A program made the position numbers and the translations under genes. Below, piece after piece: positions 4,981 to 60,810 of a DNA stretch of 64,000 bases. How positions within the stretch are numbered: position 1 is the first letter of the stretch; each line of letters starts with the position of its first letter. The notes under the pieces were generated by a model that did no database searches, was not told the DNA's origin, and saw only the letters and a list, made by a program, of their open reading frames with translations. The stretch is from an uncultured Alphaproteobacteria bacterium (GTDB lineage: Bacteria > Pseudomonadota > Alphaproteobacteria > RF32 > CAG-239), in the NCBI GenBank assembly GCA_944392225.1, contig CALXWB010000003.1:8723-72722 (forward strand), read 5' to 3'.

Positions 4981-5003
4981 GTTTTATTTTTTATTGATCT
5001 TAA

Positions 5004-5052
5004 AGCACAAATCGATACCTCTTTTTAGAGGTTTTCGGTTTGTGCTTTTTTG
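5004..5052 (+). terminator. Rho-independent terminator after rpsT
   Basis: Stem agcacaa…ttgtgct with an inner hairpin cctctttttagagg, followed by TTTTTT. Confidence 0.6.
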
Positions 5053-5389
5053 TTATAAAACTGACAGAATCTGCGCGACTCTGTGAAAAATGCCTGTCAA
5101 GAAATATAATTGCAATGTTCTTAAAATGTTCTGTTGTATTTATGTTTTTTTGTCTTTAATATCCGAATTGCTTTCAGGAACAAACGTTAATGAAAAGCAA
5201 GAGCACCTTGGGTTTTAAGAGTGTCTCTGATAAAAAAACAATTATTAAGATAAACTTTGATAAAAAAGATAAATTCTAACAGATAAGACATTTATTATAT
5301 AAGGGAATATATATCGGCTTGTCTGGTTTGTTAGGGAAACAAATTAAACGAATGACATCTTTTATCAAGTTTGGCTTTATAATTTTGGG

Positions 5390-9488: not shown

Positions 9489-9908
9489 ATGGAAACACAA
9501 TATTACACCCTGATTGAGAAACAAGATTTCTACGAGATTATTGAAAATAAATATGGCGAACTCGCTATTTTTATTGACGCACGCGAAGGTGCCCCGGTTA
9601 ATCCCGTGTTGCAATTTGACGGCAAAAAAACCGCTCTTTTGAAAAGAGATGAACACTTGGCCGTGAAACTTGATGATATTGACGAGGAAACCAGAGGTCC
9701 TTTGGCCGAAGCCGAGTTTTTGCTGATTGTGGAATTGCAAGGCAAAATGGTGGAACGCACCTATGCCGTGCCGGTGGAAAATGTGGAAGAGATTGTTTTG
9801 GAAGGCAAACAAACCCGCGCCGATGAATATGTCAAAGCCAAAACCAAAGAAGAAGTTTTGGCTAAGTTCGGCGCTGTTAAATGCTGGACAAACGGTCCTA
9901 AAAAATAA
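9489..9908 (+). CDS. Hypothetical acidic protein (139 aa)
   Basis: ORF with good coding potential located upstream of PTS EIIA/HPr. No recognisable motif. Confidence 0.5.
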   Translation: METQYYTLIEKQDFYEIIENKYGELAIFIDAREGAPVNPVLQFDGKKTALLKRDEHLAVKLDDIDEETRGPLAEAEFLLIVELQGKMVERTYAVPVENVEEIVLEGKQTRADEYVKAKTKEEVLAKFGAVKCWTNGPKK

Positions 9909-37659: not shown

Positions 37660-37757
37660 GCAACGGAGGACGTTGGGTTGATTTGTCGCCAACCCGGTCA
37701 GGTCCGGAAGGAAGCAGCCGTAACGATCTTAATCAAGGCTATATGTCCTCCACCAGT
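37660..37757 (+). ncRNA. ffs: Signal recognition particle RNA (4.5S/ffs)
   Basis: Contains GGUCAGGUCCGGAAGGAAGCAGCC, identical to the E. coli 4.5S domain IV core. The 5' GGAGGAC pairs with the 3' GUCCUCC. Conserved position immediately upstream of dnaX. Confidence 0.8.
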
Positions 37758-42387: not shown

Positions 42388-42510
42388 CTACTTTTGTATA
42401 TTGTTTTTTCTTTTGGATGAGGTTTATTTAATACTCAAAACCTTTTCATCCGCTTTTTACAGTATCATGCCTTGGGTTAATGTTTGGTTAATGCACAAGA
42501 AAAAAGCTCC
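42100..42510. repeat. Inverted repeat, left copy (promoter/5'UTR plus first ~95 codons of flagellin-like gene 1)
   Basis: About 95% identical to the reverse complement of 60811-61205. The antisense ORFs 42257..42586 and 60820..61050 give near-identical peptides (MAELTFKPVDKRNCVLSCNF…), confirming the repeat. Confidence 0.85.
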
Positions 42511-42530
42511 TTTGCAGGAGCTTTTTTCTT
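42499..42530. terminator. Terminator after cvpA (hairpin symmetric on both strands)
   Basis: aaaaaagctcc-tttgca-ggagctttttt. Confidence 0.65.
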
Positions 42531-43290
42531 ACTCTACCGTATTTTCTATCAGCCGATCCAAATTGCTACGTTCGCTCGCATTATAGCTCTTGGCTTTAGC
42601 GGCTTCTTCTTTTTTCTTCTTCTCTGCCTCAAGCTTTTGGTTGGCCTTGCTGTTGTCTATCACCTTTATCGGCTTTTTCTCGGCTTTTTTGCCAACTTTC
42701 GGCTGTGCCAACATCTCAAACAAAACATCTATATCCGTCTTATTTTTATCTTCTTCAATCTGCTCTTCTTCATCTTCTTTGCTGACAGAACGCGTTTTTT
42801 CTCTTATCTTGACCAAAGTTGATTCGGGAATCAAATCTTCTATCGGTTTGGCAAAAGAACCGGCAATATTGAAATATTTTGACTCTTGCATTACTTTGGC
42901 TTGGTTTTCTTTCGGAACCATCCAGTTTATCAAAATATAGCACAAAATAACCAGCAAAAATGCTCTGAATATACCAAAAAACAACCCCAAAACCCTGTCC
43001 AAACCGCTCAATTTGCTCTTTCTGATTGAGCCGATGATTTTTGCTGTCAGAATAATCCAAAATATAAAAAATATGATGACAATTCCCGATGCCGTGGCAA
43101 CAGCCGCAACCGAGCCGTTTTCTACATAATTGGCAACAATCGGCGTGAAAACCGGCATTAAATAAATCACTGCAGCAATGGCTAAAACCCAGCCGATTAT
43201 TGATAAAACTTCTTTTATCAGCCCGCGGCTTAAGGCTATTAAGGCCGATATGGCAACAACTATCAATATTGCAACATCTAAACTGTTCAC
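42529..43290 (-). CDS. cvpA: CvpA-family membrane protein with a charged C-terminal extension
   Basis: N-terminal TM helices typical of CvpA (MNSLDVAILIVVAISALIALSRG…). Conserved position upstream of radA. Confidence 0.75.
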   Translation of the reverse strand: MNSLDVAILIVVAISALIALSRGLIKEVLSIIGWVLAIAAVIYLMPVFTPIVANYVENGSVAAVATASGIVIIFFIFWIILTAKIIGSIRKSKLSGLDRVLGLFFGIFRAFLLVILCYILINWMVPKENQAKVMQESKYFNIAGSFAKPIEDLIPESTLVKIREKTRSVSKEDEEEQIEEDKNKTDIDVLFEMLAQPKVGKKAEKKPIKVIDNSKANQKLEAEKKKKEEAAKAKSYNASERSNLDRLIENTVE

Positions 43291-43302
43291 GGTTTTTTCC
43301 TC

Positions 43303-44676
43303 TTAGTTAAACCAATTTATCAATCTTTGGACATTGCCAATTTCATAAACATTCATATCTGTGTGCAAACCGGCTTTTTTGTCCTTGTTATGCGTGGGGG
43401 GAACTATGCAACTTGCAAAACCAAGCTTTTGCGCCTCTTTCAAACGCAATGAAGGCTGGCTAACCGCCCTTATCTCTCCAGACAAACCAATCTCGCCAAA
43501 AATGACCATATCCGGCGGCAACGGCTTGTTGGTCATGGATGATATCACCGCCATGGCAACTGCTAAATCTGCTGCAGGTTCGCTTATCTTCAGCCCGCCG
43601 GCAATGTTCAAATATACATCTTGTGCACTTAAGTTCATGCCGCAACGGGCTTCCAAAACAGCCAAAACCATGGCCAGCCGGTTTGAATCCCACCCGACAA
43701 CGGCTCGCTTGGGACTGGCATAACCCGTGGGACTCACAAGTGCTTGAATCTCGACCAAAACCGGTCTGGAACCCTCTATTCCGGCAAAAACACAAGAACC
43801 TGATATATTGCCTTGCCTTTCGGCCAAAAATAAGGCTGATGGATTTTCAACTTCTACCAAACCTCTGTCTTGCATCTCAAAAACGCCAATCTCGTCCGTG
43901 GCGCCAAAACGGTTCTTAACCGCCCGCAAAATGCGAAAATGATGCCCCCTCTCGCCCTCAAAATACAGCACCGTATCTACCATATGCTCCAAAACGCGCG
44001 GACCAGCAATCGAACCTTGCTTGGTTACGTGCCCAACCACAAACAACGTAAACCCTTTTCTCTTGGCAAGCTTTATCAACTCATAAGAGCAAGCCCTCAC
44101 CTGTGTGACACTGCCGGGCGTGGACTCTACATCTTCTAAATACATGGTTTGGATGGAATCAATAATCACCACATTGGCATTGGACCTTTCCAACGTGGCA
44201 ACAATATCTCTGATATCCGTGGCAGAAGCTAAATGAACCGGCGCTTTTTCCAAACCAAGCCTTTTGGCTCTTATGCGCACCTGGTCTATTGCCTCTTCTC
44301 CGGAAATGTAAAAAACTTCCGGCCGGCTCGGCAATTCTGCCACTTTGGCACAGGCTTGCAATAATAAGGTAGATTTTCCAATTCCCGGATCGCCGCCAAC
44401 CAAAATCACCGAACCGGCAACCAAACCGCCGCCGCAAACTCTGTCCAGCTCTTTAATCCCCGTGGTCATGCGCTCCAGGTTTTCTGCCGCACCTTCCAAT
44501 GGCACAAAGTCTATCATCTTGCCTTTTTGCTTGGGTTTTAAATTTGAAAAACCCTCACCGTGAACTTGCTCTTCCACAATGGTGTTCCACTCCCCGCAAG
44601 AATCACACTTGCCTTGCCATTTGGGATATACGGCTCCGCAATTTTGGCAAACAAAATCTATCCCTTTTTTGGACAA
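43303..44676 (-). CDS. radA: DNA repair protein RadA/Sms
   Basis: N-terminal C4 zinc finger (CQNCGAV…CDSCGEW), RecA-like Walker A GDPGIGKST, and Lon-like C-terminal domain. Confidence 0.93.
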   Translation of the reverse strand: MSKKGIDFVCQNCGAVYPKWQGKCDSCGEWNTIVEEQVHGEGFSNLKPKQKGKMIDFVPLEGAAENLERMTTGIKELDRVCGGGLVAGSVILVGGDPGIGKSTLLLQACAKVAELPSRPEVFYISGEEAIDQVRIRAKRLGLEKAPVHLASATDIRDIVATLERSNANVVIIDSIQTMYLEDVESTPGSVTQVRACSYELIKLAKRKGFTLFVVGHVTKQGSIAGPRVLEHMVDTVLYFEGERGHHFRILRAVKNRFGATDEIGVFEMQDRGLVEVENPSALFLAERQGNISGSCVFAGIEGSRPVLVEIQALVSPTGYASPKRAVVGWDSNRLAMVLAVLEARCGMNLSAQDVYLNIAGGLKISEPAADLAVAMAVISSMTNKPLPPDMVIFGEIGLSGEIRAVSQPSLRLKEAQKLGFASCIVPPTHNKDKKAGLHTDMNVYEIGNVQRLINWFN

Positions 44677-44677
44677 A

Positions 44678-45454
44678 CTATACCTCCACTTTTATCGGAC
44701 CTTCCGAACTGCCGTTGATAAACTGGCGAACATATTCATTATCCGTTTTATCCAGCTCTTTGACCGTGCCTTGCCAGATGATTTTTCCCTTATACAACAT
44801 GGCAATTTTATCGGCAATCTTTCTGGCTGAAGCCATATCATGCGTAATGGTTAGAGCCGTGGCTCCCAAACCTTTTACAGACTCATTAATCAAACCATTA
44901 ATTACATCTGACATTATGGGGTCCAAACCTGTGGTCGGCTCATCAAAAAAGATAATTTCCGGCCTGGTGGCAATGGCTCTGGCCAAACCTACACGCTTTT
45001 GCATACCGCCTGACAATTCTGACGGATATAAATCTGCCACATCCGGCGCCAGTCCGACTTGACGCAAAACTCTTATGGCTTCCATCTTGGCGTTCTTTTT
45101 ATCCATCTTTTGGTTTTCTATCAAACCAAAGGCCACGTTTTCCCACACGCTCAAACTATCAAACAAAGCGCCGCCTTGAAATAACATCCCCATTTTGGCA
45201 TGAAGTCTTTCTTTTTCTTTCTCAGAAACACCGACAACTTCTTCATCATCTATCAAAATGGAACCTTGCTCCGGCGTCAAAATGCCTTGAATGCACTTAA
45301 TCAACACAGATTTTCCCGTGCCGGAACCGCCTATCACTACTAAAGACTCACCCTTCTTGATTTCCAAATCCAAACCATCCAAAACAACTTTTCTACCAAA
45401 GGCCTTGTGAAGATTGGTTATTTTTATCTTTATATCACTCATGTTTTTCTCCAC
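44678..45454 (-). CDS. mlaF: ABC transporter ATP-binding protein (MlaF-like)
   Basis: Walker A GGSGTGKS, signature LSGGMQKR, Walker B IIFFDEPT. Confidence 0.85.
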   Translation of the reverse strand: MEKNMSDIKIKITNLHKAFGRKVVLDGLDLEIKKGESLVVIGGSGTGKSVLIKCIQGILTPEQGSILIDDEEVVGVSEKEKERLHAKMGMLFQGGALFDSLSVWENVAFGLIENQKMDKKNAKMEAIRVLRQVGLAPDVADLYPSELSGGMQKRVGLARAIATRPEIIFFDEPTTGLDPIMSDVINGLINESVKGLGATALTITHDMASARKIADKIAMLYKGKIIWQGTVKELDKTDNEYVRQFINGSSEGPIKVEV

Positions 45455-45461
45455 CTAAAGC

Positions 45462-46241
45462 TTATTTTGAAAAGAACATACCTGTTATGATGTAGTTGAA
45501 AATCAAAATCAAAATTGACGATGATACAACCGCATTGGTGGTGGCTTCACCAACACCTTGCGCGCCGCCTTTGGATTTGAAACCGTTATAACAACCCATT
45601 ATGGCTATGATAAATCCAAAGACTGCCGCTTTCACCACACCTGTTGTGATATCCAGTGTTTCTAAATTCTCTATTGTTGATTTTATATAATTGGCCGGGT
45701 TGAAACCTAATTGATAAACACCTACAACATAGCCGCCAAAAATTCCTATCACATCACCAATCAAAACTAATATCGGCAAAACAACAACTGCCGCAACAAC
45801 TCGCGGCGTGATTAAATATTTATACGGATTGGTTGACAATGTGGTCAGAGCATCTATTTGCTCGGTCACACGCATGGTGCCAATCTCGGCTGCCATGGCT
45901 GCACCTATACGCCCTGCCACCATTAAGGCAGACAAAACCGGCGCCAATTCTCTTGTTACCGAAATCAAAACAACCGAGGCCACCGCACTCTCGGCTCCAA
46001 AACGAGAAAATCCAGAATAACTCTGAATGGCAATCACCATACCGGCAAAAATGGTGGTCAAACCCACAACCGGCAATGAATAAAAACCTATATCCATGAC
46101 TTGACGCATCAAATTGCGACCATAAAACGGCGGAACAAAGCAATTGGCCACCGATCGCATGACAAATATGGATAACTCTCCCAAGCTTGAAAAAAACTTA
46201 ACCAAAGGCTGGCCAAGTCTGCGCAAAAATTTTTGGATCAT
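45462..46241 (-). CDS. mlaE: ABC transporter permease (MlaE-like)
   Basis: MlaE/YrbE-family permease with multiple TM helices. Directly upstream of mlaF. Confidence 0.8.
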   Translation of the reverse strand: MIQKFLRRLGQPLVKFFSSLGELSIFVMRSVANCFVPPFYGRNLMRQVMDIGFYSLPVVGLTTIFAGMVIAIQSYSGFSRFGAESAVASVVLISVTRELAPVLSALMVAGRIGAAMAAEIGTMRVTEQIDALTTLSTNPYKYLITPRVVAAVVVLPILVLIGDVIGIFGGYVVGVYQLGFNPANYIKSTIENLETLDITTGVVKAAVFGFIIAIMGCYNGFKSKGGAQGVGEATTNAVVSSSILILIFNYIITGMFFSK

Positions 46242-46322
46242 AACCTTACTCTTTCAAGTTAATTAACATGTTTAATCGTATATTATGACGCCAAATTTCA
46301 GAAATCAACTAACTTATGAATT

Positions 46323-46739
46323 TTATCTCAAAGATAATGCCAAAATTATCTTTTCGGCCGCTGATGCTTCAAACGGATGAACCCGAATCTTGGGGATTTT
46401 TACTCCTTCTATCTCTTCAAATTCTGCTTCGGGATAACGCTCTATCTTATTAAAATCATCTTCCAAATCAACAACCAAGTCTATAATTTCTGACCTTTTG
46501 GCCGGAAAATGCGCCAAACCAATCCCCCTTACCTCAAGCATGTTGGCAATGGTCTTGATGCCATAGGCTTTGAGTTTGCCTTTCTTTTCAAAAACATCAA
46601 GTCTGTCATCTCCAACCAAAAGACAGCCTTTGTTCATGATCAAACGCAAACACAAATCCGATTTGCCGGAACCCGATTTACCCCGAATCAAAATCCCTTT
46701 TCCATAATAGGAAACACATGATGCATATATATTGGCCAT
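46323..46739 (-). CDS. hprK: Truncated HPr kinase/phosphorylase (C-terminal kinase domain only; alphaproteobacterial type)
   Basis: P-loop GKSGSGKSDLCLRL plus HprK C-domain signature. About 138 aa, as in Rhizobiales. Confidence 0.8.
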   Translation of the reverse strand: MANIYASCVSYYGKGILIRGKSGSGKSDLCLRLIMNKGCLLVGDDRLDVFEKKGKLKAYGIKTIANMLEVRGIGLAHFPAKRSEIIDLVVDLEDDFNKIERYPEAEFEEIEGVKIPKIRVHPFEASAAEKIILALSLR

Positions 46740-47209
46740 TATCTTTTACCGTTTAGTTGATTGAAACGTTTTTTGTCTTCTTCTTGTGTGCAGAAAACCT
46801 CAAACAAGCGCCCTTCCGCCTGCGGCGTTATCTTTATGCTGATGGCTCTTCTGGGCAAATATCCCCCCATGTTTTCCGGCCACTCAATCAAACAAACACC
46901 TTGATACATGGCATCTTCCATCCCAAGCTCAAATATCTCTTCCGCCTCTTTTAACCGATATAGGTCAAAATGATATATATCAAAATTCGGCGTTTCATAA
47001 GTTTGCAGAAGCGTGAAGGTTGGGCTCGGAACATCCGTGTCTTTCAAAAAACTTTGAATAAATGCACGGCTGAAAACACTTTTGCCCATGCCAAGCGTGC
47101 CGAATAGTGCAAAAATATCTCCCTTTTGTGCTATTTTTGCCACGCGCCGACCAAAATCTTTTGTTTCTTCTTCCGTTTTGGAAAGATATTGATATACAGC
47201 ATCCGTCAT
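46739..47209 (-). CDS. tsaE: tRNA threonylcarbamoyladenosine biosynthesis protein TsaE
   Basis: Walker-A-like GTLGMGKS with TsaE/YjeE family architecture. 156 aa. Confidence 0.85.
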   Translation of the reverse strand: MTDAVYQYLSKTEEETKDFGRRVAKIAQKGDIFALFGTLGMGKSVFSRAFIQSFLKDTDVPSPTFTLLQTYETPNFDIYHFDLYRLKEAEEIFELGMEDAMYQGVCLIEWPENMGGYLPRRAISIKITPQAEGRLFEVFCTQEEDKKRFNQLNGKR

Positions 47210-47210
47210 T

Positions 47211-48164
47211 TTAAAAACCTAACATGCTTTTGCGTTCTTTTTTCGGTTGCGTTACCTTTATGTTTGGTTTTTGCGCTTTCATTTTGCGCCAATCTTCCGG
47301 GCTGTAAAATTTTCCTTGCCACAAACCGTCCCGTCTACTCATGGCTTGTTCTTGGTAGGGAACATAGATATCTGAATATTTGGTATAAGCCAAAGCCCAG
47401 CCTGCATTTACCAAAGCGGCACCAATATCATATTGCCCCAAAGAACAAACACCCGACATATTGCCGTTTTTGTCTTGCTGCATGATATGACATTCCACAG
47501 GGTTATCCATCAACCAATCTCTGAGCCAGGTGGCAGCAACTTTTCCGCAGTGATATGCACGACCCATTTTGTTGGCACAAGTTTGATCAATTTCCGGCGC
47601 ATCTATACCAAACAACCTGATATAATAACCGTCCATCATTAAGGTATCGGCATTTACAACTCTGACTTTTCCCACAATGGAGGGATAATCTTGCGGAGTC
47701 ATGGCTCCGCCTTGTTTTTGGCCAGATACTTTATTCAAGGCTCTTTTAAACGAACTCCCTTCTTTATTGTTATATGCCGAACCCCTAATTTGCGGCATGT
47801 CATCTACCGTTTGACTTTCTTCTATATCCTCTTTTTCCAAAATCATCATTGCCGGGTCATTTTGGGTTTGACCTTGACCCAAAAATGACTGCAGTGTCGG
47901 AATAACATTTCCAACACCGTTGTTAAACCCGCCGATGGCATAAATTATAAACGTTGTTATACCGGCAAAAACCAAAAACGAGGGCAAGCAACCCATGGCT
48001 CGCCAAGCCATTTTTAAAAATAAATATAAAACGACTAACCCGATTAAAAACAATATAAAGCCGCCGCCTTGAACAATCATGCTCTTGCTTTGCGTGCCGG
48101 CTCCTCCCCAAAATATTAAGAGGAAAGCACCCATTGCCGTTAAAATTCTTTTGAGAAAGCCCAT
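47211..48164 (-). CDS. Membrane-anchored staphylococcal-nuclease (SNase/thermonuclease) domain protein
   Basis: N-terminal multi-TM region. The C-terminus carries SNase motifs (…VVNADTLMMDGYYIRLFGIDAPE…). Confidence 0.7.
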   Translation of the reverse strand: MGFLKRILTAMGAFLLIFWGGAGTQSKSMIVQGGGFILFLIGLVVLYLFLKMAWRAMGCLPSFLVFAGITTFIIYAIGGFNNGVGNVIPTLQSFLGQGQTQNDPAMMILEKEDIEESQTVDDMPQIRGSAYNNKEGSSFKRALNKVSGQKQGGAMTPQDYPSIVGKVRVVNADTLMMDGYYIRLFGIDAPEIDQTCANKMGRAYHCGKVAATWLRDWLMDNPVECHIMQQDKNGNMSGVCSLGQYDIGAALVNAGWALAYTKYSDIYVPYQEQAMSRRDGLWQGKFYSPEDWRKMKAQKPNIKVTQPKKERKSMLGF

Positions 48165-48266
48165 GTCTTCACCATTTATGTTGTTTCAAATTTATTATAA
48201 TATCTTCTATTTTAGTAAATATATCGTTACTTTCAACAAAATAAAGGTCTTGTTTGACCAAGACCT

Positions 48267-48575
48267 TTATTTTATTAATTTTATTTCAGAAGTTGCTTTA
48301 TCATAAACCTTTTCCGTGGCGGTTTCTATTCCCGGCTTGCTAAACTCTATGATATCAAAGTAGCTTAACAAAAACACCAAAAAAGCTATCGTCAAAACAA
48401 AAATCAATATTCTCCAGGCAATTTTGGCAATTAAATACAAAATCATTATTCCGCCCGTTATTGCGGCAGCATAAGCCAGCTTTTTGACCAACTCCTCATC
48501 ATCAAAGCCAACCGATGCCACCAACAGCACGGCAACAATAAAAATCGTTATCAAAAATTTTTTTATATATTGCAT
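48267..48575 (-). CDS. Small hypothetical membrane protein
   Basis: 102 aa with three predicted hydrophobic helices. Confidence 0.45.
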   Translation of the reverse strand: MQYIKKFLITIFIVAVLLVASVGFDDEELVKKLAYAAAITGGIMILYLIAKIAWRILIFVLTIAFLVFLLSYFDIIEFSKPGIETATEKVYDKATSEIKLIK

Positions 48576-48576
48576 C

Positions 48577-49560
48577 TTAATCTACAACTTTTATTGAAAA
48601 TTTTTGATTGCTTGCTTCTGAATTTGTATTTTTAAATACAGTGTTTACGCTATTGTTTGTATTTTGTTTATTTTTGTTTTCCAAAATACTCAATATCATA
48701 TCCAATTCTGCTGCAGAAGCATATTGCAAAGTAACCTTACCGCCGCCTTGCTTGCTCGGCGTGATTTTGATTCTCAAGCCAAGCTCTTTTCTCAAATCAT
48801 TTTCAATTTCTTCAATATCTTCATCAATCGGCCTTGGATTCTTTGCTTTTTTAGGCTCTTTTTGTTTTGAGACCAAATCTTCTACCTGGCGCACGTTCAA
48901 ATCTTTGGCAATGATTTGCTTGGCCAAAGCCACAGCATTGTCCAACCCTACCAAGGCTCGCGCATGTCCGGCTGAGATTTTGTTTTCTTTTACCATCTCT
49001 TGAACTTCTGCCGGCAGACTCAACAATCTCAACGTGTTGGCAATTTGGCTTCTTGATTTTCCGACAACCTGGGCTAGTGCTTCCTGCGTGTGCGAAAATT
49101 CATCCATCAGTCTTTTATATCCTTCTGCCTCTTCTATGGCTGAAAGATTTTCTCTGAGCAGGTTCTCAATCAAGGCAACTTCCAAAGCCTCTTTGTCAGA
49201 AAAATCTTTCACTATTACAGGCACTTCTTTCAAACCGGCTTCTTTTGAAGCTCTCCAGCGTCGTTCTCCGGCAATAATCTCATATTTATCGCCTTGCTTT
49301 CTCACCAACAGCGGCTGCAAAACACCTTTTTCTTTTATTGATTCTACCAAAGAATCTAAGGCGGCTTTATCAAACTCGGTTCTTGGCTGATATTTTCCGG
49401 GAACAAGTTTATCAATATCCACCCTGTCACCGGTTTTTGCTTCTTTGCCGGCTTCATTTCTACCCGGCTTATCTGACAAAACATCTAAGCCCAAATCTTC
49501 TCCGCCCAAAAGAGCTCCTAAGCCACGACCCAAATTTTTTTTCTTGTTTTCTTCTAGCAT
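48577..49560 (-). CDS. parB: Chromosome partitioning protein ParB
   Basis: ParB box GERRWRA, HTH region, and C-terminal dimerisation domain. Confidence 0.93.
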   Translation of the reverse strand: MLEENKKKNLGRGLGALLGGEDLGLDVLSDKPGRNEAGKEAKTGDRVDIDKLVPGKYQPRTEFDKAALDSLVESIKEKGVLQPLLVRKQGDKYEIIAGERRWRASKEAGLKEVPVIVKDFSDKEALEVALIENLLRENLSAIEEAEGYKRLMDEFSHTQEALAQVVGKSRSQIANTLRLLSLPAEVQEMVKENKISAGHARALVGLDNAVALAKQIIAKDLNVRQVEDLVSKQKEPKKAKNPRPIDEDIEEIENDLRKELGLRIKITPSKQGGGKVTLQYASAAELDMILSILENKNKQNTNNSVNTVFKNTNSEASNQKFSIKVVD

Positions 49561-50333
49561 GCCAATAATTCCTTTTCTCTTTTCAAAACTTCACCCGTTA
49601 AACTGATATATGCTTGTGAGCCCGGACATTTAAAATCATATATTAAAACCGGCTTGCCATGTGACGGAGCTTCCGAGATTTTTACATTTCTCGGAATCAC
49701 GGTTTGATAAACCTTTTTGCCAAAGAAGTTGCGCACATCTTCTTCAACCTGTTGGGTTAAATTGTTTCTTCTGTCATACATGGTCAAAACAACGCCTTGC
49801 AGCTCTAAATCCGGATTAAATACTCTTTTGATTTGGTTAATGTTGCGAATCAAGTCTGTTATTCCCTCCAAAGCCAAAAATTCGCATTGCAGAGGAACAA
49901 TAACGGCATTGGCCGCAACCAAAGCATTGATTGTTATCAAGCTCAAAGACGGCGGACAATCTATCAATATATAATCATAATTAACAGCCTCTTCCTTCAG
50001 CGCATTTTTCAAGGCAAATTCTCTTTTCTCCACATCTACCAATTCTATTTCGGCACCCGCCAAGTCTTCTGACGACGGAACAATGGAAAAGTTCGGAATC
50101 TCTGTCCAAACCACAGCTTCAGACAATTTTGCTTCACCAATCAGCACCTCATAAGAAGATATCATTCTGCCTCTTTTATTCACACCCATTGAGGTTGAGG
50201 CATTGCCTTGCGGATCAAGGTCAATCAGCAGCACCTTTTTGCCGGCCGCAGCCATGGCTGTTGCCACATTGACCGTTGTTGTTGTTTTTCCAACACCACC
50301 CTTGCGATTTGCAATTGCTATGATTCTTGGCAT
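49554..50333 (-). CDS. parA: Chromosome partitioning ATPase ParA
   Basis: Deviant Walker A KGGVGKTTT. Confidence 0.93.
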   Translation of the reverse strand: MPRIIAIANRKGGVGKTTTTVNVATAMAAAGKKVLLIDLDPQGNASTSMGVNKRGRMISSYEVLIGEAKLSEAVVWTEIPNFSIVPSSEDLAGAEIELVDVEKREFALKNALKEEAVNYDYILIDCPPSLSLITINALVAANAVIVPLQCEFLALEGITDLIRNINQIKRVFNPDLELQGVVLTMYDRRNNLTQQVEEDVRNFFGKKVYQTVIPRNVKISEAPSHGKPVLIYDFKCPGSQAYISLTGEVLKREKELLAC

Positions 50334-50957
50334 TTATTTTTCTCCTTTTTTCAACAGATGACTGATGACTAAAATTTTTCCTTCTTCACTGGTTTCACTG
50401 TCAAAAATTTGACAATCAAAAGACCAATGTTTTTTTGCTTCTTCAATTTCTTCAGCATATTTTTTGCCTTTAGGAAAAATGCAGGTTGTTTTTGTTGAAG
50501 CAAAGTTTTTGGTATAATTAAACAGATTATCTAAAGAGGTCATGGCGCGTGACGTTATCACATCGACCTTTTCTTTTTTTATATTTTCGATTCTTTGATT
50601 GATGATTTCAACATCAACTTGGCAAATTTTTTTCACTTCGTTTAAATACAGTGTTTTTTTGGTTATACTTTCAATCAAGCTCACTTTTAAATACGGTGTT
50701 TTTTCTTTTGCCATTATGGCCAACACCATACCCGGAAAGCCTGCTCCAGAACCAAAGTCCACCAGGGTTTTGGCCTCTTTCGGAATGTATTTAAACAACT
50801 GTGCTGAGTCAACAAAATGTCTGTTCCAACAATCTTCCAAAGAAGAGTTGCTCACCAGATTAAACTTGTTTTGCCACTCTCTCAACAAAGATTCGTAGGT
50901 TTTTAATTGCTCAAATGTTTCACGTGAAACATTGTATTTTTCCATAAAATTTTTCAT
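50334..50957 (-). CDS. rsmG: 16S rRNA (guanine527-N7)-methyltransferase RsmG (GidB)
   Basis: SAM-binding motif DFGSGAGFPG. Conserved mnmG-rsmG-parA-parB order. Confidence 0.9.
   Translation of the reverse strand: MKNFMEKYNVSRETFEQLKTYESLLREWQNKFNLVSNSSLEDCWNRHFVDSAQLFKYIPKEAKTLVDFGSGAGFPGMVLAIMAKEKTPYLKVSLIESITKKTLYLNEVKKICQVDVEIINQRIENIKKEKVDVITSRAMTSLDNLFNYTKNFASTKTTCIFPKGKKYAEEIEEAKKHWSFDCQIFDSETSEEGKILVISHLLKKGEK
50916..50931. promoter_or_regulatory. parS: parS centromere site (perfect TGTTTCACGTGAAACA)
   Basis: 16-bp perfect palindrome inside the 5' end of rsmG, encoding VSRET. Confidence 0.85.
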
Positions 50958-51076: not shown

Positions 51077-51901
51077 CTATTTTTTAAGAATTTCCAAACC
51101 AACTCTGTTTTTACAGTTGAATGATTGCAACAAATTTTCTGTTTTTTCAAAATATTGCCCCAACATGGAAACAGAATGTGCATCGTCACTCAAAAGTGTG
51201 GGAACACCTCTGCGACAAAGCTCTTTTAACATCCAATCGCACGGATGCTGCATATTAATCCTATTAAAACCGCTCGTGTTAACCTCAAACGGCATTCTTG
51301 TTTCATCAAGAGCTTCAATAATTTTCCAGCGGCTCGCTTCCAGATTCGGAAATTCGGGAATTTTGATAACACAATAATCAGCATGTGCCAAAAAGTTGAA
51401 ATATCCGCTCTTTATGGTGTTGACAACATTGTCCCAGTGTTGCCGGACAAGCTTGTTAAAATCTTCTTTGCCTAAACTCGGCGGGAGCAAATCTAAGTGA
51501 TATATATTGCACAGATAACTTTCATCAGGCTTGAAAATGAAATGATTTGAACCAATAATATAGTCAAAATCCAGCTGTTTTAACATTCTTTCAAAGCCAT
51601 TTCTCCAGGCAGCCGAAGGAAAAAAATCGACTTCCGCACCAACATAAACTTTTATTTTGTGCTTTGCCGCCGCTGTTCTTATCTCTTCCAATATATACTT
51701 GAACATTGTTACGGTTTTTTGTTCATCGTTCATAAACATCGGATGACTATGCTGCATGTTTGGGTGCCAGCACAAATGATTGGATATACCTATGGCCTCA
51801 AAGCCTAGCTTTTCTGCTTGAGAAATCATTTCTTCCGCCGTGTTTTGACCGTCAAATATACCCAAGGCGTTGGTATGGCAATGTAATGTGAACTTTTGCA
51901 T
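51077..51901 (-). CDS. PHP-domain (histidinol-phosphatase-like) metal-dependent phosphoesterase
   Basis: MQKFTLHCHTNA… His-rich PHP motifs. Start overlaps the upstream murA stop in a TAATG arrangement. Confidence 0.7.
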   Translation of the reverse strand: MQKFTLHCHTNALGIFDGQNTAEEMISQAEKLGFEAIGISNHLCWHPNMQHSHPMFMNDEQKTVTMFKYILEEIRTAAAKHKIKVYVGAEVDFFPSAAWRNGFERMLKQLDFDYIIGSNHFIFKPDESYLCNIYHLDLLPPSLGKEDFNKLVRQHWDNVVNTIKSGYFNFLAHADYCVIKIPEFPNLEASRWKIIEALDETRMPFEVNTSGFNRINMQHPCDWMLKELCRRGVPTLLSDDAHSVSMLGQYFEKTENLLQSFNCKNRVGLEILKK

Positions 51902-53319
51902 TATAACTCCGCTATTGATTCTATTTCTCTTCCTTCTTTTGAATATGAGATATCTATGCCCAAATCTTGTAAATTTTTGATTAAGTTTGGATAGCCGCGC
52001 AAAGCAAAGCCTGGTTCTTGTATCAAGCTTTTTCCTTCTGCCGTTGCGGCTAAAATTATTGTGCCCATGGTGCCGCGCAAATCCGTGCCTTTGGCCTCTG
52101 CCGCATGAAATGTTGATGGCTTGATTGTTATATACAGATTTTTTATGGTTCCTTGCTGGCCGCTGTTCACATCAATCTGTTCATATTGGCTTTGCAGACC
52201 AAATTTTGCCATCTCCGGCAAATGAGCACTCCTTCCGGCCCATATTAAATCTGATATAACGGACGGGCTTTTGGCTTGAGCTAAAATAGGAGTCCATATC
52301 TGGTGCAAGTCTGTTTCAAAACCGGGGAAGGGTGTTACCTGCATGATGAATCCGTCATATGGTTTGATCTTTCTAAAATCTAAATATAGTTTTTTCTTAT
52401 CTGCCGAATAGTATATACCTCTGCAAAACATTCTTTCCAGCTGTTTCAGCCAAGGGGAACAATGCTCAAAATTTATTCCATCTAATTCAACAGCTCCTCT
52501 GGTTGACAAGGTGAGCAGGGCATAGGTTGCCGCTTCCAGCCTATCGGGAATCACTTCAAAATCAACACCTTTAAGCAAACTTCTGTTTTTGCCGTCATAA
52601 ATAAGGCCGGTTCTCTCGTTTCCGATTATTCCCAAACCCATTTTTTGCAACATGGCAATCAAGTTTGAAACTTCCGGCTCTAGGGAAGCATTATACATCA
52701 TCTTACATTCATTTGAGCCAACCACGGACAACAGCCAGTGAAATGTAGCGCCGTGCGAGGCTTTAAATGTGGTATACACAGGGCAGAAGTCTGACTTTTC
52801 TTTCTTTGGCAGTGTAAAACATAAATAAGAATATTTTTCGTTTTCTTTTGTTTCAATACTAATTGTGGCACCAAAAACGGTTTTTATCAGTTCTTCATGA
52901 AAATCTGTCGGGCGTTTTCCTCCAAAAGAACATCCTCCGGGCAGGCAAACTTTCAGACTATCAAACTCTTTGGTGCGTGAAAATCGGGCTAACAAGGAGC
53001 CCCAAAGATAATAGCTGGCTCTAAAATGTGCCGCTTGGTGAGAAATCTCGTTTTTAACAATTTTTGCGGCGTGTAGCTTCAATATTCTTTTTTGCGGATC
53101 ATATTTAACATCAACGCCAATATCTTTCATAATATGTCCCATTTCCAAAACATCGGTGATATATGGTACATTACGTAGCGTGACAACGTCATCTGTTAAA
53201 ACGGCAGCTGCCATTAAACCTAAAATGGCATTTTTTGCACCGCTTATCTTAATGTCTCCGGAAACGGAATTACCGCCATTGATTGTCAAACTATCGGGAA
53301 TAAAGAAATTTTCAGTCAT
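51901..53319 (-). CDS. murA: UDP-N-acetylglucosamine 1-carboxyvinyltransferase (MurA family; long form, 472 aa)
   Basis: ISGAKNAILG… and active-site LPGGCSFGGKRPTDFH (MurA Cys115 loop). Confidence 0.8.
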   Translation of the reverse strand: MTENFFIPDSLTINGGNSVSGDIKISGAKNAILGLMAAAVLTDDVVTLRNVPYITDVLEMGHIMKDIGVDVKYDPQKRILKLHAAKIVKNEISHQAAHFRASYYLWGSLLARFSRTKEFDSLKVCLPGGCSFGGKRPTDFHEELIKTVFGATISIETKENEKYSYLCFTLPKKEKSDFCPVYTTFKASHGATFHWLLSVVGSNECKMMYNASLEPEVSNLIAMLQKMGLGIIGNERTGLIYDGKNRSLLKGVDFEVIPDRLEAATYALLTLSTRGAVELDGINFEHCSPWLKQLERMFCRGIYYSADKKKLYLDFRKIKPYDGFIMQVTPFPGFETDLHQIWTPILAQAKSPSVISDLIWAGRSAHLPEMAKFGLQSQYEQIDVNSGQQGTIKNLYITIKPSTFHAAEAKGTDLRGTMGTIILAATAEGKSLIQEPGFALRGYPNLIKNLQDLGIDISYSKEGREIESIAEL

Positions 53320-53431: not shown

Positions 53432-55279
53432 TTATTTTTTAACATAACCCAAAATAGCCGTGATGGCGGCAGGGGTTACTCCCGGAATGCGTGAAGCCTC
53501 GCCGATGGTTGAAGGTTTGACCTTGCTCAATTTAGTAACCATCTCTCGCGATAAGCCGCCGATTTTGCCATAATCAATATCTTCACGCAATTTGAGGTTT
53601 TCATCTTTTTTGAAGACCTCAATATCAGCCATCTGGCGTTTGATATAACCCGAATAGCGTGCTTCAATCTCAATGGCTTCATAAACAACATTCGGCATAT
53701 CAACCAACTCGGGGAAGAGTTGATTGATTGTTTCACGTGAAACGTCTTCATAACTCATCAGATTAAAAGGTGTTCTCTTAGTGCCATCATGCTTGACGTT
53801 CAAGCCCAAAGCATCTATCTCTTTATAGCTGGTTTGCAGGGTGTTACAAAGCTCGGTATAATGCTTAATCTGCTCTTTTTTAGATTTAAATACACTGTAT
53901 CTATGTTCTCCGACACAACCAATGTCATGACCTTTTTCAGTCAGACGACGATCGGCATTATCCGCACGCAGGAATAAACGATATTCCGAGCGAGAGGTGA
54001 ACATACGGTAAGGTTCATCCACACCTTTGGTGATTAAATCATCAATCATCACACCGATATAAGCTTCACTTCTATCTACCACAAATTCTCGACCTTTACC
54101 TTCAGCATACAGAGCCGCATTAATACCGGCAACCAAACCTTGCGCGGCGGCTTCTTCATAGCCGGTGGTGCCGTTGATTTGTCCAGCCAAGAATAAGCCC
54201 GGGACTTTTTTCACCGCTAAACGGTTATCCAACTCTTGCGGATCAACATAGTCATATTCAATGGCATAGGCAAAGCGCAAAATTTCTACATCTTCCAAAC
54301 CTTCCATCGTGTGAATGAAAGCATCTTGCACATCTGCCGGCAAAGATGTGGAAATGCCGTTCGGATAAACCACATCAGTATTCAAACCTTCCGGTTCCAA
54401 GAAAATTTGATGACTGGTTCTATCGGCAAACTTGACCAACTTATCTTCAATGCTCGGGCAATATCTTGGCCCAACACCGGTAATCAAACCCGAAAACAAC
54501 GCACATTTATCAAAATTATCACGAATAATCTTATGCGTTCTTTCATTGGTATGAGTGATATAGCACTGAATCTGCGGGTTGGTGATTTTATCCGTCAAAT
54601 ATGAAAAAGGAACGGGCGGATTGTCGCCGTCTTGGGTGGCCAGTTTTTCCCAGTGGATGGTTTTGCCGTTCAGACGGGCAGGGGTGCCGGTTTTCAAACG
54701 GCCGACTTTTAAACCAAGTTGCTTTAAATACGGTGTTATACCAGTGCAGCTTTCTTCACCAATACGGCCTCCAACCGTGGCTTGGTGCCCTACAAACATA
54801 ACCCCGTTCAAAAATGTGCCGGAAGTTAAAACCGTGGCCTTGGCTCTGATTTCTTCTCCATTTGCCAAAATAACACCTTCAACCTGATTATCTTTAATAA
54901 TCAAACCTTCAACCGCGGCTTCAATAATATCCAAATTCTCTTGCTCACGTAGAGCCTCAAGCATATATTTTTTATACAGCTCTCTATCCGCCTGAGCGCG
55001 CGGACCTCTTACGGCCGGACCTTTGGAAGCATTGAGCATACGAAACTGAATGCCGGCTTTGTCAATCACACGACCCATCAAGCCGTCAAGCGCGTCCACC
55101 TCCCTGACCAAATGTCCTTTGCCCAAACCACCAATGGCCGGATTGCAAGACATGGCACCAATAGTATCAATATGGTGGGTCACCAAAGCGGTTTTGGCGC
55201 CGGTTCTCGCTGCTGCGGCACAAGCTTCACAGCCGGCGTGTCCTCCGCCAACCACAATTACATCGTAAATTTTATTCAT
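53432..55279 (-). CDS. mnmG: tRNA uridine-5-carboxymethylaminomethyl modification enzyme MnmG (GidA)
   Basis: FAD-binding GGGHAGCEA. 615 aa. Confidence 0.95.
53729..53744. promoter_or_regulatory. parS: parS centromere site (TGTTTCACGTGAAACg, 15/16)
   Basis: Near-perfect parS palindrome inside the 3' part of mnmG. It also encodes VSRET. Confidence 0.8.
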
Positions 55280-56912: not shown

Positions 56913-57620
56913 TTGGCGGACTCAATTTTTTCTATCACTAATTGTAAAATGATTAAAACTTCTAATAAATTGATAATTTGGGATTTTGACGGCGTGATTG
57001 CCGATACAGAATGTTTGTGGATGGAAAATCGGCGAAAACTTCTTAAAAAATATTTTAACATTAATTGGGATTTAAAAACAACTAATCATATTCTCGGAGG
57101 TATGCATTGGACCACACGTTTGCAAACTTTGCAAAAAATGGGTCTCAATATTGATAAAAATTTTGAAGATGAAGCCACAAAACTCGATTGGCAAGTTTTG
57201 AATAAAGGAATTTCTCTTACCCCTCATATTGAAAAAATTTTTGCAAGAACAGATATCAAACAATGTATTGCTACCGGCGGCACCAAGGAAAAAACAGAAA
57301 AAAAACTCAAGGCCGTGGGTATTGATCGGATTTTTACACCAGATAAGGTTTTCTTGGCAGAAATGGTTGCTCATGGCAAACCGGCGCCGGATTTGTTTTT
57401 GCTCGCGGCTCAAAAAATGGGTGAAAAACCAGAGAATTGCCTTGTGATTGAAGACTCACCGGCCGGGCTTAAAGCCGGATTGGCCGCAAATATGACAACA
57501 TTGGCCTTTGTCGGCAGCAAAATGAACAACAATGATGAATATATTGCTCAAGTCAGAGATTTGGGCATAAAATATATTTTCAATAATATGAATGATATTT
57601 ATCATTTCATATTTGAATAA
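56913..57620 (+). CDS. HAD-superfamily hydrolase (beta-phosphoglucomutase-like)
   Basis: Motif I IIWDFDGVIADTE. The start may be the internal Met at 56949. Confidence 0.75.
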   Translation: MADSIFSITNCKMIKTSNKLIIWDFDGVIADTECLWMENRRKLLKKYFNINWDLKTTNHILGGMHWTTRLQTLQKMGLNIDKNFEDEATKLDWQVLNKGISLTPHIEKIFARTDIKQCIATGGTKEKTEKKLKAVGIDRIFTPDKVFLAEMVAHGKPAPDLFLLAAQKMGEKPENCLVIEDSPAGLKAGLAANMTTLAFVGSKMNNNDEYIAQVRDLGIKYIFNNMNDIYHFIFE

Positions 57621-57653
57621 AAAAAAGCTCCGTTTTCAGGAGCTCTTTTTTTC
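57621..57653. terminator. Bidirectional terminator between the HAD hydrolase and rho
   Basis: aaaaaaagctcc-gttttca-ggagctcttttttt. Confidence 0.7.
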
Positions 57654-58906
57654 TAAGAATTCATATGATCAAAGAAATCTTGGTTGTTTTTGCTTTGTCT
57701 GAGCTTATCAAGTAAAAACTCCATACCATCGGTCATGCCCATTTGCATCAACACGCGGCGCAAAACCCACATTTTGGACAAGGTGGCTTTGTCAACCAAA
57801 AGCTCTTCCTTACGGGTGCCGGAACGGGTGATATCAATGGTTGGGAAGAGGCGTTTATCGGTTAACTTTCTATCCAAAATGATTTCGGAGTTGCCTGTTC
57901 CTTTGAACTCTTCAAAAATAACCTCATCCATGCGTGAGCCGGTATCAATCAACGCGGTGGCAATGATGGTTAAGGAACCTCCTTCCTCCACATTGCGGGC
58001 AGCACCGAGCAGGCGTTTCGGGCGTTGCAAAGCATTGGCATCAACACCACCTGTTAAAACTTTGCCTGATGATGGAATAACCGTGTTATAAGCACGACCC
58101 AAACGGGTGATTGAGTCAAGCAAAATGACCACGTCTTTTTTGGTTTCAACCAATCTTTTGGCTTTTTCAATGACCATTTCGGCCACTTGAACATGGCGCG
58201 AGGCCGGCTCATCAAAGGTGGAAGATATTACCTCGCCTTTGACCGAGCGCATCATATCCGTTACCTCTTCCGGGCGCTCATCAATCAACAACACCATCAG
58301 ATAAACTTCCGGGTGATTGGTGGCTATGGCATGAGCAATATTTTGCAACATAACGGTTTTACCTGTGCGCGGCGGCGCCACAATCAAACCACGTTGGCCT
58401 TTGCCTTGCGGGGCAATTAGGTCAATCACACGGGTGGTATAGTCTTTATCACCGCAGATGATGTCAAAATTGAGTTTTTGTGTTGGATATAATGGCGTGA
58501 GATTGTCAAAATTTATTCTTAATTTGGAAAGTTCGGGGTCTGCAAAATTTATTCGGTTGACTTTGGTTAAAGCAAAATAGCGTTCATTGTCTTTGGGCGC
58601 TCTGATTTCTCCTTCAACCGTATCGCCGGTGCGCAAACCAAACTTTTTGACCTGAGAAGGTGAAACATATATATCATCCGGCCCGGCAAGGTAGTTTGAC
58701 TGGCTTGATCTTAAAAAACCAAAGCCGTCTTGCAAAACCTCAATGGTTCCTTCTCCATAGATGATATTGTCTTCACTGGCTACTTTTTTCAAAATTGCAA
58801 ACATCAGGTCTTGTTTGCGCATGGAAGAAGCATCTTCAATGCCTAGGTCCTCAGCCTCCGTTAAGAGTTCTTTCGGGGATTTTTGTTTTAAGTCTTTTAA
58901 ATTCAT
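57653..58906 (-). CDS. rho: Transcription termination factor Rho
   Basis: N-terminal RNA-binding domain and RecA-like ATPase (…[15 protein letters not shown]…). 417 aa. Confidence 0.95.
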
Positions 58907-58949
58907 GCTTACCTTAAATTTTTTGGGAATAAATTTCTGCAGTTAAGAT

Positions 58950-59450
58950 TATTTTAAATATTTCAATATTTATTTTGGTAGGTTGCTTTTTTATATATTC
59001 TTATATTTCTTTTTTGTCAATTGTTTTTGGCAAAAGGCCAGAATGTTAAAAATTTTGATAACATGCTTGGAATTATATTTATGTTTTGCGTTAAGATTTT
59101 ATTAACAGCCCCGCAGGGCAAATATAATATTTAAAAAAGTTTTGTTGTTATTTGTTTATCCCTGTGAGTTGTGTGGATAAGTTTTCTTTCACAGATTTGT
59201 CCACAAAAAGCTTTGTTAAAACGAATCGTTAACAAAAGATTAATAAAATTTGTCTTTTTAGATTCATTTTCAAACAACTAAACACCATAATCCGATTCAA
59301 AACTTTAATTTTTGAATTTTGATATATCCACAGGTGTGAATGCTTTTTTGTGCCTGTATATAACTCTGAGTTTGGGTTTTGCAAAATGCGGATTAAATTG
59401 TATAACTGTTGAAAAAGGGCAGAGTTATGCACAAAAGGTTAACGTTCTGT
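58950..59450. promoter_or_regulatory. oriC: Candidate chromosomal replication origin (oriC): AT-rich region with a DnaA-box cluster and CtrA-like TTAA-N7-TTAA sites
   Basis: Perfect DnaA box TGTGGATAA at 59172-59180. 8/9 boxes at 59197-59205 (TTGTCCACA), 59324-59332 (ATATCCACA) and 59425-59433 (TTATGCACA). TTAA-N7-TTAA at 59091-59105 and 59229-59243. AT-rich stretch at 58950-59030. Lies between rho and coaE/dnaQ, with parS sites 5-8 kb away. Confidence 0.6.
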
Positions 59451-59492
59451 TAATAACTCTGTTTTGTTTTTATATATCAACAGCTTAAGGCT

Positions 59493-60080
59493 ATGAACAT
59501 GATTTTGGCGGCGATTACCGGCTCAATTGGTTGCGGAAAAACCACTCTGGCTCAAGTTTTCAAAAAACTCGGATATCCTGTTTTTGATGCTGATGCTTGG
59601 GTCAGAAGGCTTTATGAAAAACCTGCTTTTATCAAGGTTGTTTTGCAAAATTTTCCGGGGGCTCAAACTAACGGTGCTTTTGATAAAAGAAAATTGCGCT
59701 TGCTTGTGTTTGATGATGCTCAAAAGTTGCAAAAGCTGGAATGTTTGATTCACCCTTTTTTAAAAGAACAACTCAAAACCGTTATTAGAAAAAATGCTAA
59801 AAAAGTAGGTTTGTTTTTTCTTGATGCGGCTTTGTTGTTTGAGCTTGGATGGGATAAATATTGCGATTTTGTGATTACCGTAAATGTGGATAAAAAAACA
59901 CAAAAACAACGCGTTATGCAAAGAGATAATGTTTCGGAAGCTCATGTTGAAAAAATTATTGAAAAGCAAATGAGCCAAAAAGAAAAGGTGAAAAGAGCCG
60001 ACTGGGTGGTGGAAACAAATGTGCCGCTTAATTTGCTCAAGGTTTTTGCTTTGGAAATTGTAAACGGATTGAAAGAATAG
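59493..60080 (+). CDS. coaE: Dephospho-CoA kinase
   Basis: P-loop GSIGCGKTT. 195 aa. Confidence 0.88.
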   Translation: MNMILAAITGSIGCGKTTLAQVFKKLGYPVFDADAWVRRLYEKPAFIKVVLQNFPGAQTNGAFDKRKLRLLVFDDAQKLQKLECLIHPFLKEQLKTVIRKNAKKVGLFFLDAALLFELGWDKYCDFVITVNVDKKTQKQRVMQRDNVSEAHVEKIIEKQMSQKEKVKRADWVVETNVPLNLLKVFALEIVNGLKE

Positions 60081-60087
60081 GTAAAAA

Positions 60088-60810
60088 ATGGTCAGAGAAA
60101 TTGTTTTTGATACGGAAACAACGGGTTTTTATGCCGATAAAGGTGATCGATTGGTGGAAATCGGCGCCATTGAGCTCATTAACCATATTCCAACGGGAAA
60201 AACTTTTCATCAATATATCAATCCGCAAAGAGAAGTGCCGGAAGAAGCTTTCAAAGTTCATGGTTTGTCTTATGAGTTTTTGAAAGATTTTCCTACCTTT
60301 GACCAAATTGTTGATGATTGGCTCAATTTTGTCGGTGATGACGGTATTTTGGTGGCTCATAATGCCAAGTTTGATATCACCTTTTGTAACTTTGAACAAA
60401 AAGCCTTGAATAAGCCCGAGTTTTCTTGGGACAGAGTGATTGATACGCTGGAAATTGCACGCAATATGTTTCCGGGAGCACGCGTCAATTTGGATGCTCT
60501 TTGCAAACGCTTTAATATTGATAACTCAAACCGCACCAAACACGGTGCTTTGCTTGATGCCGAGCTTTTGGCAGAAGTTTATCTGCAGCTCATCGGCGGT
60601 CAAGAACCGTCTATGATGTTTGATGAGAAGAAAAAATCAGCACAGCAGACAACGGATATTCAGTTCGGGGGAGAGGGAAAAACAAGACAAGAACGCCATT
60701 TTCCTTTGAGTGAAGAAGAGATAAAATTACATAATGAATTTTTGCAAAACAAAATAAAAAATGCCATATGGTTGGCTGAGCCTGAATTATCAGAAAAAAA
60801 TAGAATTTAA
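60088..60810 (+). CDS. dnaQ: DNA polymerase III epsilon subunit (3'-5' proofreading exonuclease)
   Basis: Exo I FDTETTG, Exo II and Exo III (HGALLDAELLAEVY) motifs. Confidence 0.9.
   Translation: MVREIVFDTETTGFYADKGDRLVEIGAIELINHIPTGKTFHQYINPQREVPEEAFKVHGLSYEFLKDFPTFDQIVDDWLNFVGDDGILVAHNAKFDITFCNFEQKALNKPEFSWDRVIDTLEIARNMFPGARVNLDALCKRFNIDNSNRTKHGALLDAELLAEVYLQLIGGQEPSMMFDEKKKSAQQTTDIQFGGEGKTRQERHFPLSEEEIKLHNEFLQNKIKNAIWLAEPELSEKNRI

Follow-up and report, generated by a model that had tools for sequence, protein, structure and literature searches.

In Caulobacter crescentus, the origin of replication (Cori) has been mapped experimentally between hemE and CCNA_00001/duf299, which corresponds to COG1806 (PMC6393856). 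Cori contains five TTAA-N7-TTAA sites and only moderate (G) and weak (W) DnaA boxes (PMC6393856). Origins have also been predicted in silico for Rickettsia, Wolbachia, Ehrlichia and Anaplasma (Brassinga et al.; Ioannidis et al., 2007, PMC1914354). The predicted Rickettsia origin is located in the same syntenic gap, and the number of CtrA sites in the predicted origins ranges from 0 to 7 between lineages (PMC1914354). In Azospirillum, oriC lies between yqfL (COG1806) and hemE and has six DnaA boxes, with parAB ~12 kb off and parS ~10–12 kb away (bioRxiv 10.64898/2026.09.14.751567).

We analysed a 64-kb stretch of DNA (hereafter, the window) from an uncultured alphaproteobacterium, for which an original prediction had proposed a candidate oriC in the intergenic region between rho and coaE rather than in the gap next to dnaA. 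Synteny, motif content and enrichment, conservation and the polarity of the strand-corrected skew support this proposal and disfavour the dnaA-proximal gap. Read from these features, the rho–coaE gap is very likely the chromosomal oriC and orthologous by position to the origins of Caulobacter, Rickettsia and Azospirillum.

Gene order at the rho–coaE junction

The rho–coaE intergenic region (58907–59492) is the longest in the window (586 bp) and has an AT content of 72.4%, 14 points above the window-wide value of 58.4%, in keeping with the AT-rich 586-bp region originally described. It is bordered on the left by rho (57653–58906, minus strand, start at 58906; NCBIfam Rho, 690 bits) and on the right by coaE (59493–60080, plus strand, start at 59493), which is followed by dnaQ (60088–60810, plus strand). 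All three genes are transcribed away from the gap. A search for known RNAs (Rfam) returned nothing but sub-threshold noise for the gap, and the short open reading frames inside it all look spurious and were rejected.

The identities of parB, parA, rsmG, mnmG, mnmE, rho, coaE, dnaQ, rpsT and dnaA were confirmed. Hence the members of the parB-parA-rsmG-mnmG-mnmE-rho array that had been read at this locus are genuine, but the array itself is interrupted by PHP/HisJ-like, murA-like and HAD hydrolase genes. The order in the window is parB-parA-rsmG-(PHP-like)-(murA-like)-mnmG-mnmE (minus strand), the HAD hydrolase gene (plus strand), rho (minus strand), the gap and coaE-dnaQ (plus strand). The PHP/HisJ-like phosphatase gene and the divergent murA-like gene, whose NCBIfam scores fall under the MurA cut-offs, split the usual mnmG-rsmG pair (51077–53319), and the HAD hydrolase gene (56913–57620, plus strand) separates mnmE from rho. 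Between 40.6 and 58.9 kb, 17 of 18 genes are directed away from the rho–coaE gap. Most genes at 23–40 kb lie on the plus strand and would meet a fork coming from 59 kb head-on, which counts against an origin at the gap. The two parS sites had been placed 5–8 kb away, and this is where we found them: a perfect site (TGTTTCACGTGAAACA) at 50916–50931, 8.0 kb from the gap, and a site with one mismatch at 53729–53744, 5.2 kb from it.

Neighbouring genes were mapped at 80 alphaproteobacterial rho loci. The canonical order among these loci is dnaQ, coaE, aroE, maf and COG1806 (PF03618) on one side of a divergent gap and hemE, hemH, hemJ, rho, mnmE and mnmG through to parB on the other, with both series transcribed outwards. 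Clusters of DnaA boxes (at most one mismatch) occupy that divergent gap regardless of which genes border it. For example, the borders are hemE and COG1806 in Sphingomonadales, Hyphomicrobiales and Rhodospirillales (e.g., loci L005, L012, L031, L039 and L051), hemJ and maf in Rhodobacterales (L064, L066 and L076), rho and COG1806 in Bartonella (L045), and rho and coaE in the window and in L001, the genome hit closest to it. No hemE, hemH, hemJ, COG1806, maf or aroE was detected with tblastn in the window or in 11 related metagenome loci. With these six gap-adjacent genes absent, rho and coaE border the gap directly. Judged by gene content and order, the rho–coaE gap is the canonical divergent junction minus its six nearest genes.

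The 11 metagenome loci were recovered with a single metagenome scan that used a block conserved between the window and L001 (59148–59168) as a DNA pattern, followed by a tblastn filter. The loci are alignable, have the rho|coaE junction and encode Rho proteins 81–90% identical; several, in a set of related loci that includes L107 and L123, come from human-gut metagenome assemblies. As the search pattern, the block is conserved in the metagenome loci by construction. L001 was found independently, through Rho, so that the conservation of 59148–59168 between the window and L001 does not depend on the search pattern; neither does the conservation of other blocks. In L001 (1–13251), the rho-gap-coaE-dnaQ unit is intact, yet mnmE-mnmG lie on the dnaQ side. 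A simple inversion was considered as the cause and was not confirmed: rho is followed in L001 by a dnaE-like gene (1156 amino acids; identified from its N-terminal sequence only) that has no counterpart in the window, which points to more than one rearrangement.

Compared to Cori, the window gap occupies the same junction, between the genes of the dnaQ-coaE-aroE-maf-COG1806 block and those of the hemE-hemH-rho-mnmE-mnmG-rsmG-parA-parB block. Both also have parS close by and contain multiple DnaA boxes, an AT-rich tract, GANTC sites, an IHF-like site and TTAA-N7-TTAA sites, of which Cori has five and the window gap four. Unlike Cori, the window locus is missing hemE, hemH, hemJ, COG1806, maf and aroE, has rho and coaE as borders and contains one perfect DnaA box of the E. 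coli type (TTATCCACA). Furthermore, dnaA belongs to a dnaA-dnaN-recF cluster at a distance of 54 kb, and any role of CtrA or CcrM here is putative. The description of the gap as lying just beyond the array, as in Caulobacter, is therefore right about the junction, which is orthologous, but not about the borders, which in Caulobacter are hemE and COG1806 instead of rho. If a Cori-type origin is defined by a hemE and/or COG1806 border, the window gap falls outside the definition; if it is defined by a position within the dnaQ-coaE ... rho-mnmE-mnmG-rsmG-parA-parB neighbourhood, the gap falls within it.

The comparison with the other alphaproteobacterial origins leads to a similar picture. The gap has three of the four attributes that Ioannidis et al. 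used to recognize origins, as it is longer than 300 bp with DnaA boxes, CtrA-type sites and a putative IHF site, is the only such gap in the window and has an AT content above the mean. Rickettsia-type origins differ in keeping the hemE border, and proximity to hemE or COG1806 applies to the window only via the next genes outward; a likeness is that CtrA site counts vary between lineages, as they do among the relatives studied here. With the origin of Azospirillum, a Rhodospirillales-type relative, the gap has in common a cluster of DnaA boxes in the same syntenic position and parS in the vicinity. Azospirillum differs in that its border genes are retained, its genome is high in GC and no CtrA sites are described. 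In E. coli, oriC lies between mnmG/gidA and mioC, apart from dnaA, and its box cluster sits beside an AT-rich unwinding element. The window gap resembles it in general architecture, in mnmG-rsmG linkage and in the separation from dnaA, and differs from it in having no sequence homology, no GATC/SeqA system and other border genes.

DnaA boxes, CtrA-type sites and the conserved core

The rho–coaE gap contains one perfect DnaA box (TTATCCACA, 59172–59180, minus strand) and three boxes matching at eight of nine positions, all on the plus strand: TTGTCCACA (59197–59205), ATATCCACA (59324–59332) and TTATGCACA (59425–59433). The four boxes span 262 bp, as anticipated (one perfect and three 8/9 boxes within 280 bp), and eight more sites in the gap match at seven of nine positions. 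Three of these box-like sites stand out, namely TTATTAACA at 59099–59107 (plus strand), TTATATACA at 59355–59363 (minus strand) and a second TTATTAACA at 59448–59456 (minus strand).

These numbers exceed those expected from the composition of the gap. Dinucleotide shuffles of the gap contain on average 0.19 boxes with at most one mismatch, compared to the four observed, and none of 5000 shuffles reached four. At up to two mismatches, there are 12 boxes versus 2.5 expected, a count that was again reached by none of 5000 local shuffles. Every other intergenic region of at least 120 bp in the window has zero boxes at up to one mismatch. With uniform placement of the 37 observed boxes along the window, the probability of four boxes within 300 bp is ~0.02, and one of 200 first-order Markov simulations produced such a cluster. 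The related loci show a similar density: ten distinct rho|coaE gaps besides that of the window (12 related loci, Rho 81–92% identical) have five boxes each at up to one mismatch versus ~0.2 expected, and five is also the number in the L001 gap. A box form shared by these gaps, TTATN[C/A]ACA, has 15 matches in the window, four of them in the gap, a count that is partly circular because the form was derived from these very gaps.

Boxes with at most one mismatch are also over-represented across the window as a whole (37 versus 15 ± 3.9). One of them is a third perfect TTATCCACA, within coaE (59885–59893), 393 bp from the gap. Three more lie within 590 bp (28322–28908) in the gene of a ctpA-like S41 peptidase.

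Five lineage representatives were aligned to rank the conservation of each box against same-length segments. The positions 59099, 59172, 59355, 59425 and 59448 fall within the top 0.7–5.8%. The most conserved is the box at 59425 (top 0.7%), which is part of an invariant block, AGTTAT[G/A]CACAA. The perfect box at 59172 (top 1.5%) reads TTATCAACA in the relatives. The site at 59099 (top 1.5%) is replaced in them by TTATAAACA, TTATCAACA or TTATGCACA, and the sites at 59355 (top 2.4%) and 59448 (top 5.8%; TTATACACA in the relatives) are conserved as well. The boxes at 59197 and 59324, which belong to the four best, do not keep their position among the relatives, which indicates box turnover: the former is moderately conserved at most, and in place of the latter the relatives carry GTTATCCACA ~20 nt upstream. 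The related gaps are otherwise poorly alignable across lineages.

The most conserved core of the gap (59148–59185), with the consensus AGTTATTTGTTTATnnCTGTGAGTTGTGTkGATAAG, contains the perfect box. It is abutted by an AT-rich tract (59119–59160) that ranks, by nearest-neighbour energy, among the two least stable 40-mers of the gap. The tract is conserved, unlike the other least stable 40-mer (58941–58981), and its instability and position make it the best candidate for the DNA-unwinding element. The published DnaA-trio (BUS) pattern, in which (NAN) recurs at least three times within 16 bp of a box, carries no information in DNA that is 72% AT. A GC-rich hairpin at 59107–59120 showed no consistent conservation among the aligned gaps. 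We also identified a single degenerate match, TATCAACAGCTTA (59475–59487, plus strand), to the IHF consensus WATCAANNNNTTR, which is weak evidence for an IHF site.

Two TTAA-N7-TTAA (CtrA-type) sites had been counted in the region, which proved too few, as there are four exact sites: TTAAGATTATTTTAA (58943–58957), TTAAGATTTTATTAA (59091–59105), TTAACAAAAGATTAA (59229–59243) and TTAACGTTCTGTTAA (59439–59453). The second and fourth overlap the box-like sites at 59099 and 59448, respectively. Of the seven exact sites in the whole window, four are in the gap, where dinucleotide shuffles predict 0.25; none of 5000 shuffles reached four, and a second run of 2000 shuffles yielded P = 0.001. The L001 gap likewise has four (P ≤ 0.001 versus local shuffles), and the gut-metagenome lineages have 0–2. 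The sites, including the one at 58943, are not conserved in position among the aligned lineages.

The several GANTC sites that had been noted are indeed present, at 59223, 59261 and 59294 (span 59223–59298), but they are not enriched, since the window density predicts ~1.5 in the gap; related gaps have one. Their positions are not conserved, except for 59261, which is common to L001. Across the window, GANTC is under-represented (166 versus 201 ± 12.5), and none of 100 shuffles has fewer sites.

The possibility that these motifs arose by chance in an AT-rich spacer, without function, must be weighed against these counts. In its favour, AT-rich DNA inflates TTAA-type motifs, and GANTC shows no enrichment. 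Yet the shuffles keep the local dinucleotide content and never reach the number of boxes or CtrA-type sites of the gap (0 of 5000), and the lineages retain both the number of boxes and five of their positions. We consider a chance origin of the motifs extremely unlikely.

The 64-kb window contains no ctrA that we could find, and the OmpR-type gene at 13899–14528 is not CtrA-like. Nor was ccrM found in the window: the methyltransferase gene at 10626–11555 is no close relative of CcrM. This gene, which encodes a beta-class N6/N4 DNA methyltransferase (PF01555) whose best PDB relatives are not CcrM, is located just downstream of dnaA-dnaN-recF and is flanked by open reading frames without a Pfam match (9489–9908, 9954–10571 and 11730–12617). 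The enzyme may be an orphan or belong to a restriction-modification system.

Two paralogous flagellin genes, at 40636–42387 (minus strand) and 60920–62983 (plus strand; true ATG probably at 60930), have an identical TTAACCAAACATTAAC ~95 bp before their ATG (42477–42491 and 60820–60834, respectively) in upstream regions that are otherwise diverged. Together with the four sites of the candidate origin, these two bring to six of seven the exact TTAA-N7-TTAA sites of the window that lie in candidate regulatory DNA. The sequence shared by the flagellin genes is an indirect hint that the TTAA-N7-TTAA motif may be used in this organism. Control of the candidate origin by a CtrA-type regulator is plausible, if unproven, and we rate it as slightly less likely than not. 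Control by CcrM is likewise unproven, and the GANTC sites lend it no support.

GC skew and the region around dnaA

The raw cumulative GC skew of the window has its minimum at 57–59 kb, where gene direction flips too. We corrected for coding strand by comparing the coding-strand skew of minus- and plus-strand genes between dnaA and rho. The GC3 skew is +0.019 for the minus-strand genes versus −0.127 for the plus-strand genes (Mann–Whitney p = 0.003), and the skew over all positions is 0.129 versus 0.010 (p = 5e-5). The higher values of the minus-strand genes mean that the minus strand is G-rich whichever strand codes. This is expected if forks run leftwards from a point to the right of 58.9 kb. 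A minus-strand run at 42529–50333 (cvpA, radA, mlaF/mlaE-like, HPr-kinase-like, tsaE, SNase-domain, parB and parA) has GC3 skews of +0.05 to +0.37, exceeding those of genes nearer the gap.

To the right of the gap there are four genes only. The skew is positive for coaE and dnaQ (both plus strand), negative for smr (minus strand) and slightly negative for the flagellin gene (plus strand); the GC3 skews of the last two are −0.20 for smr and −0.12 for flagellin. The skew switch is confounded with gene direction there and is sampled thinly, because the right side comprises 4.5 kb, plus ~1.6 kb in L081, a contig that ends at that point. The related loci extend the comparison. In L001, the skew forms a clean V at the gap of that locus and is positive for 7 kb past it. 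In nine of nine related loci with flanks the sign changes at the gap, with values of −0.02 to −0.14 next to rho and +0.19 to +0.41 next to coaE. Gene direction confounds these comparisons.

Many bacteria outside the Alphaproteobacteria have oriC next to dnaA. In the window, dnaA (5390–6868) is 54 kb from the gap and clustered as dnaA-dnaN-recF, the arrangement found where oriC is dnaA-linked. This raises the alternative that oriC is in the rpsT-dnaA gap (4981–5389) or the dnaA-dnaN gap and that the rho–coaE cluster is incidental. In the rpsT-dnaA gap, the AT content is 71% and GATAA elements recur. This gap was predicted to have no strong DnaA box and only such repeats, and this description stands: it has no box at up to one mismatch and one at two mismatches. 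The five GATAA repeats (~5229–5290, spacings of 9–22 bp) are upstream of dnaA and are not DnaA boxes; a regulator of dnaA expression may have its sites there. The dnaA-dnaN gap also lacks boxes at up to one mismatch. Furthermore, the skew has the wrong polarity for this alternative. Over the 53 kb to the right of dnaA, the G-rich strand is the minus strand, whereas an origin at dnaA would entail the reverse, and plus-strand genes are equally negative to the left and right of dnaA, so that there is no skew switch at dnaA. With no boxes at up to one mismatch and the wrong polarity, we rejected an origin next to dnaA as highly improbable.

The window also has the gene order ffs-dnaX-ybaB-recR. 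The start of dnaX as called mechanically (37683) falls within the SRP RNA (RF00169, 65.7 bits; 37662–37757), and the true start of dnaX is therefore probably downstream.

A second alternative is that the rho–coaE gap binds DnaA without being an origin, either as a DnaA-regulated rho/coaE promoter or as a datA/DARS-like site of titration or reactivation, and that the true oriC is outside the 64-kb window. Clusters of DnaA boxes do occur off-origin in E. coli, at datA and DARS. The gap must also house the promoters of rho and coaE. Indeed, there is a minus-strand TTGACA at 59017–59022, ~110 nt upstream of rho, and the left end of the gap, which is AT-rich and less conserved, probably holds the rho promoter and leader. 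This alternative also gains from the short stretch available on the right of the gap. Against it, the position of the gap is orthologous to mapped and predicted alphaproteobacterial origins, and a change of skew sign coincides with the gap both in the window and in each of the nine related loci. Genes on its two sides point outwards, parS is within 8 kb, and a conserved AT-rich tract adjoins the boxes. These observations make a DnaA-binding locus that is not an origin unlikely, and they favour the reading of the gap as oriC.

Proposed initiation at the gap and its possible evolution in the clade

The established DnaA/oriC model provides a mechanism for initiation at the rho–coaE gap. DnaA would bind the perfect box at 59172 and the box and box-like sites at 59099, 59355, 59425 and 59448, which have the TTATN[C/A]ACA form. 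Its oligomerization would then open the adjacent AT-rich tract (~59119–59160). If the origin fires in this manner, forks would leave the gap outwards, codirectionally with the diverging rho and coaE-dnaQ units, and the parS sites 5–8 kb away would load ParB for segregation of the new origins. A CtrA-type regulator may act through the four TTAA-N7-TTAA sites, two of them overlapping box-like sites, to block initiation in the manner of Caulobacter. By its sequence features, the gap would work like Cori and other alphaproteobacterial origins, and a specialist would not be surprised by it. It changes nothing in what is known about the initiation of replication; the loss of marker genes is its sole mildly unusual feature.

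This loss has practical consequences. The conserved origin junction outlives the textbook markers hemE and COG1806, so that origin finders keyed on these genes would miss the gap. The coordinate of the probable origin is useful for the orientation of assemblies, for annotation and for peak-to-trough estimates of growth rate from metagenomes. Tentatively, we suggest that in this uncultured clade the ancestral origin lost all six gap-adjacent genes and survives as a minimal rho|coaE unit built around a conserved box core, and that the CtrA-type sites are lineage-specific, four in the window and L001 and 0–2 in the gut lineages. If this is true, the clade would offer orthologous origins with CtrA sites and others that have none, a natural series in which the lability of CtrA control could be tested.
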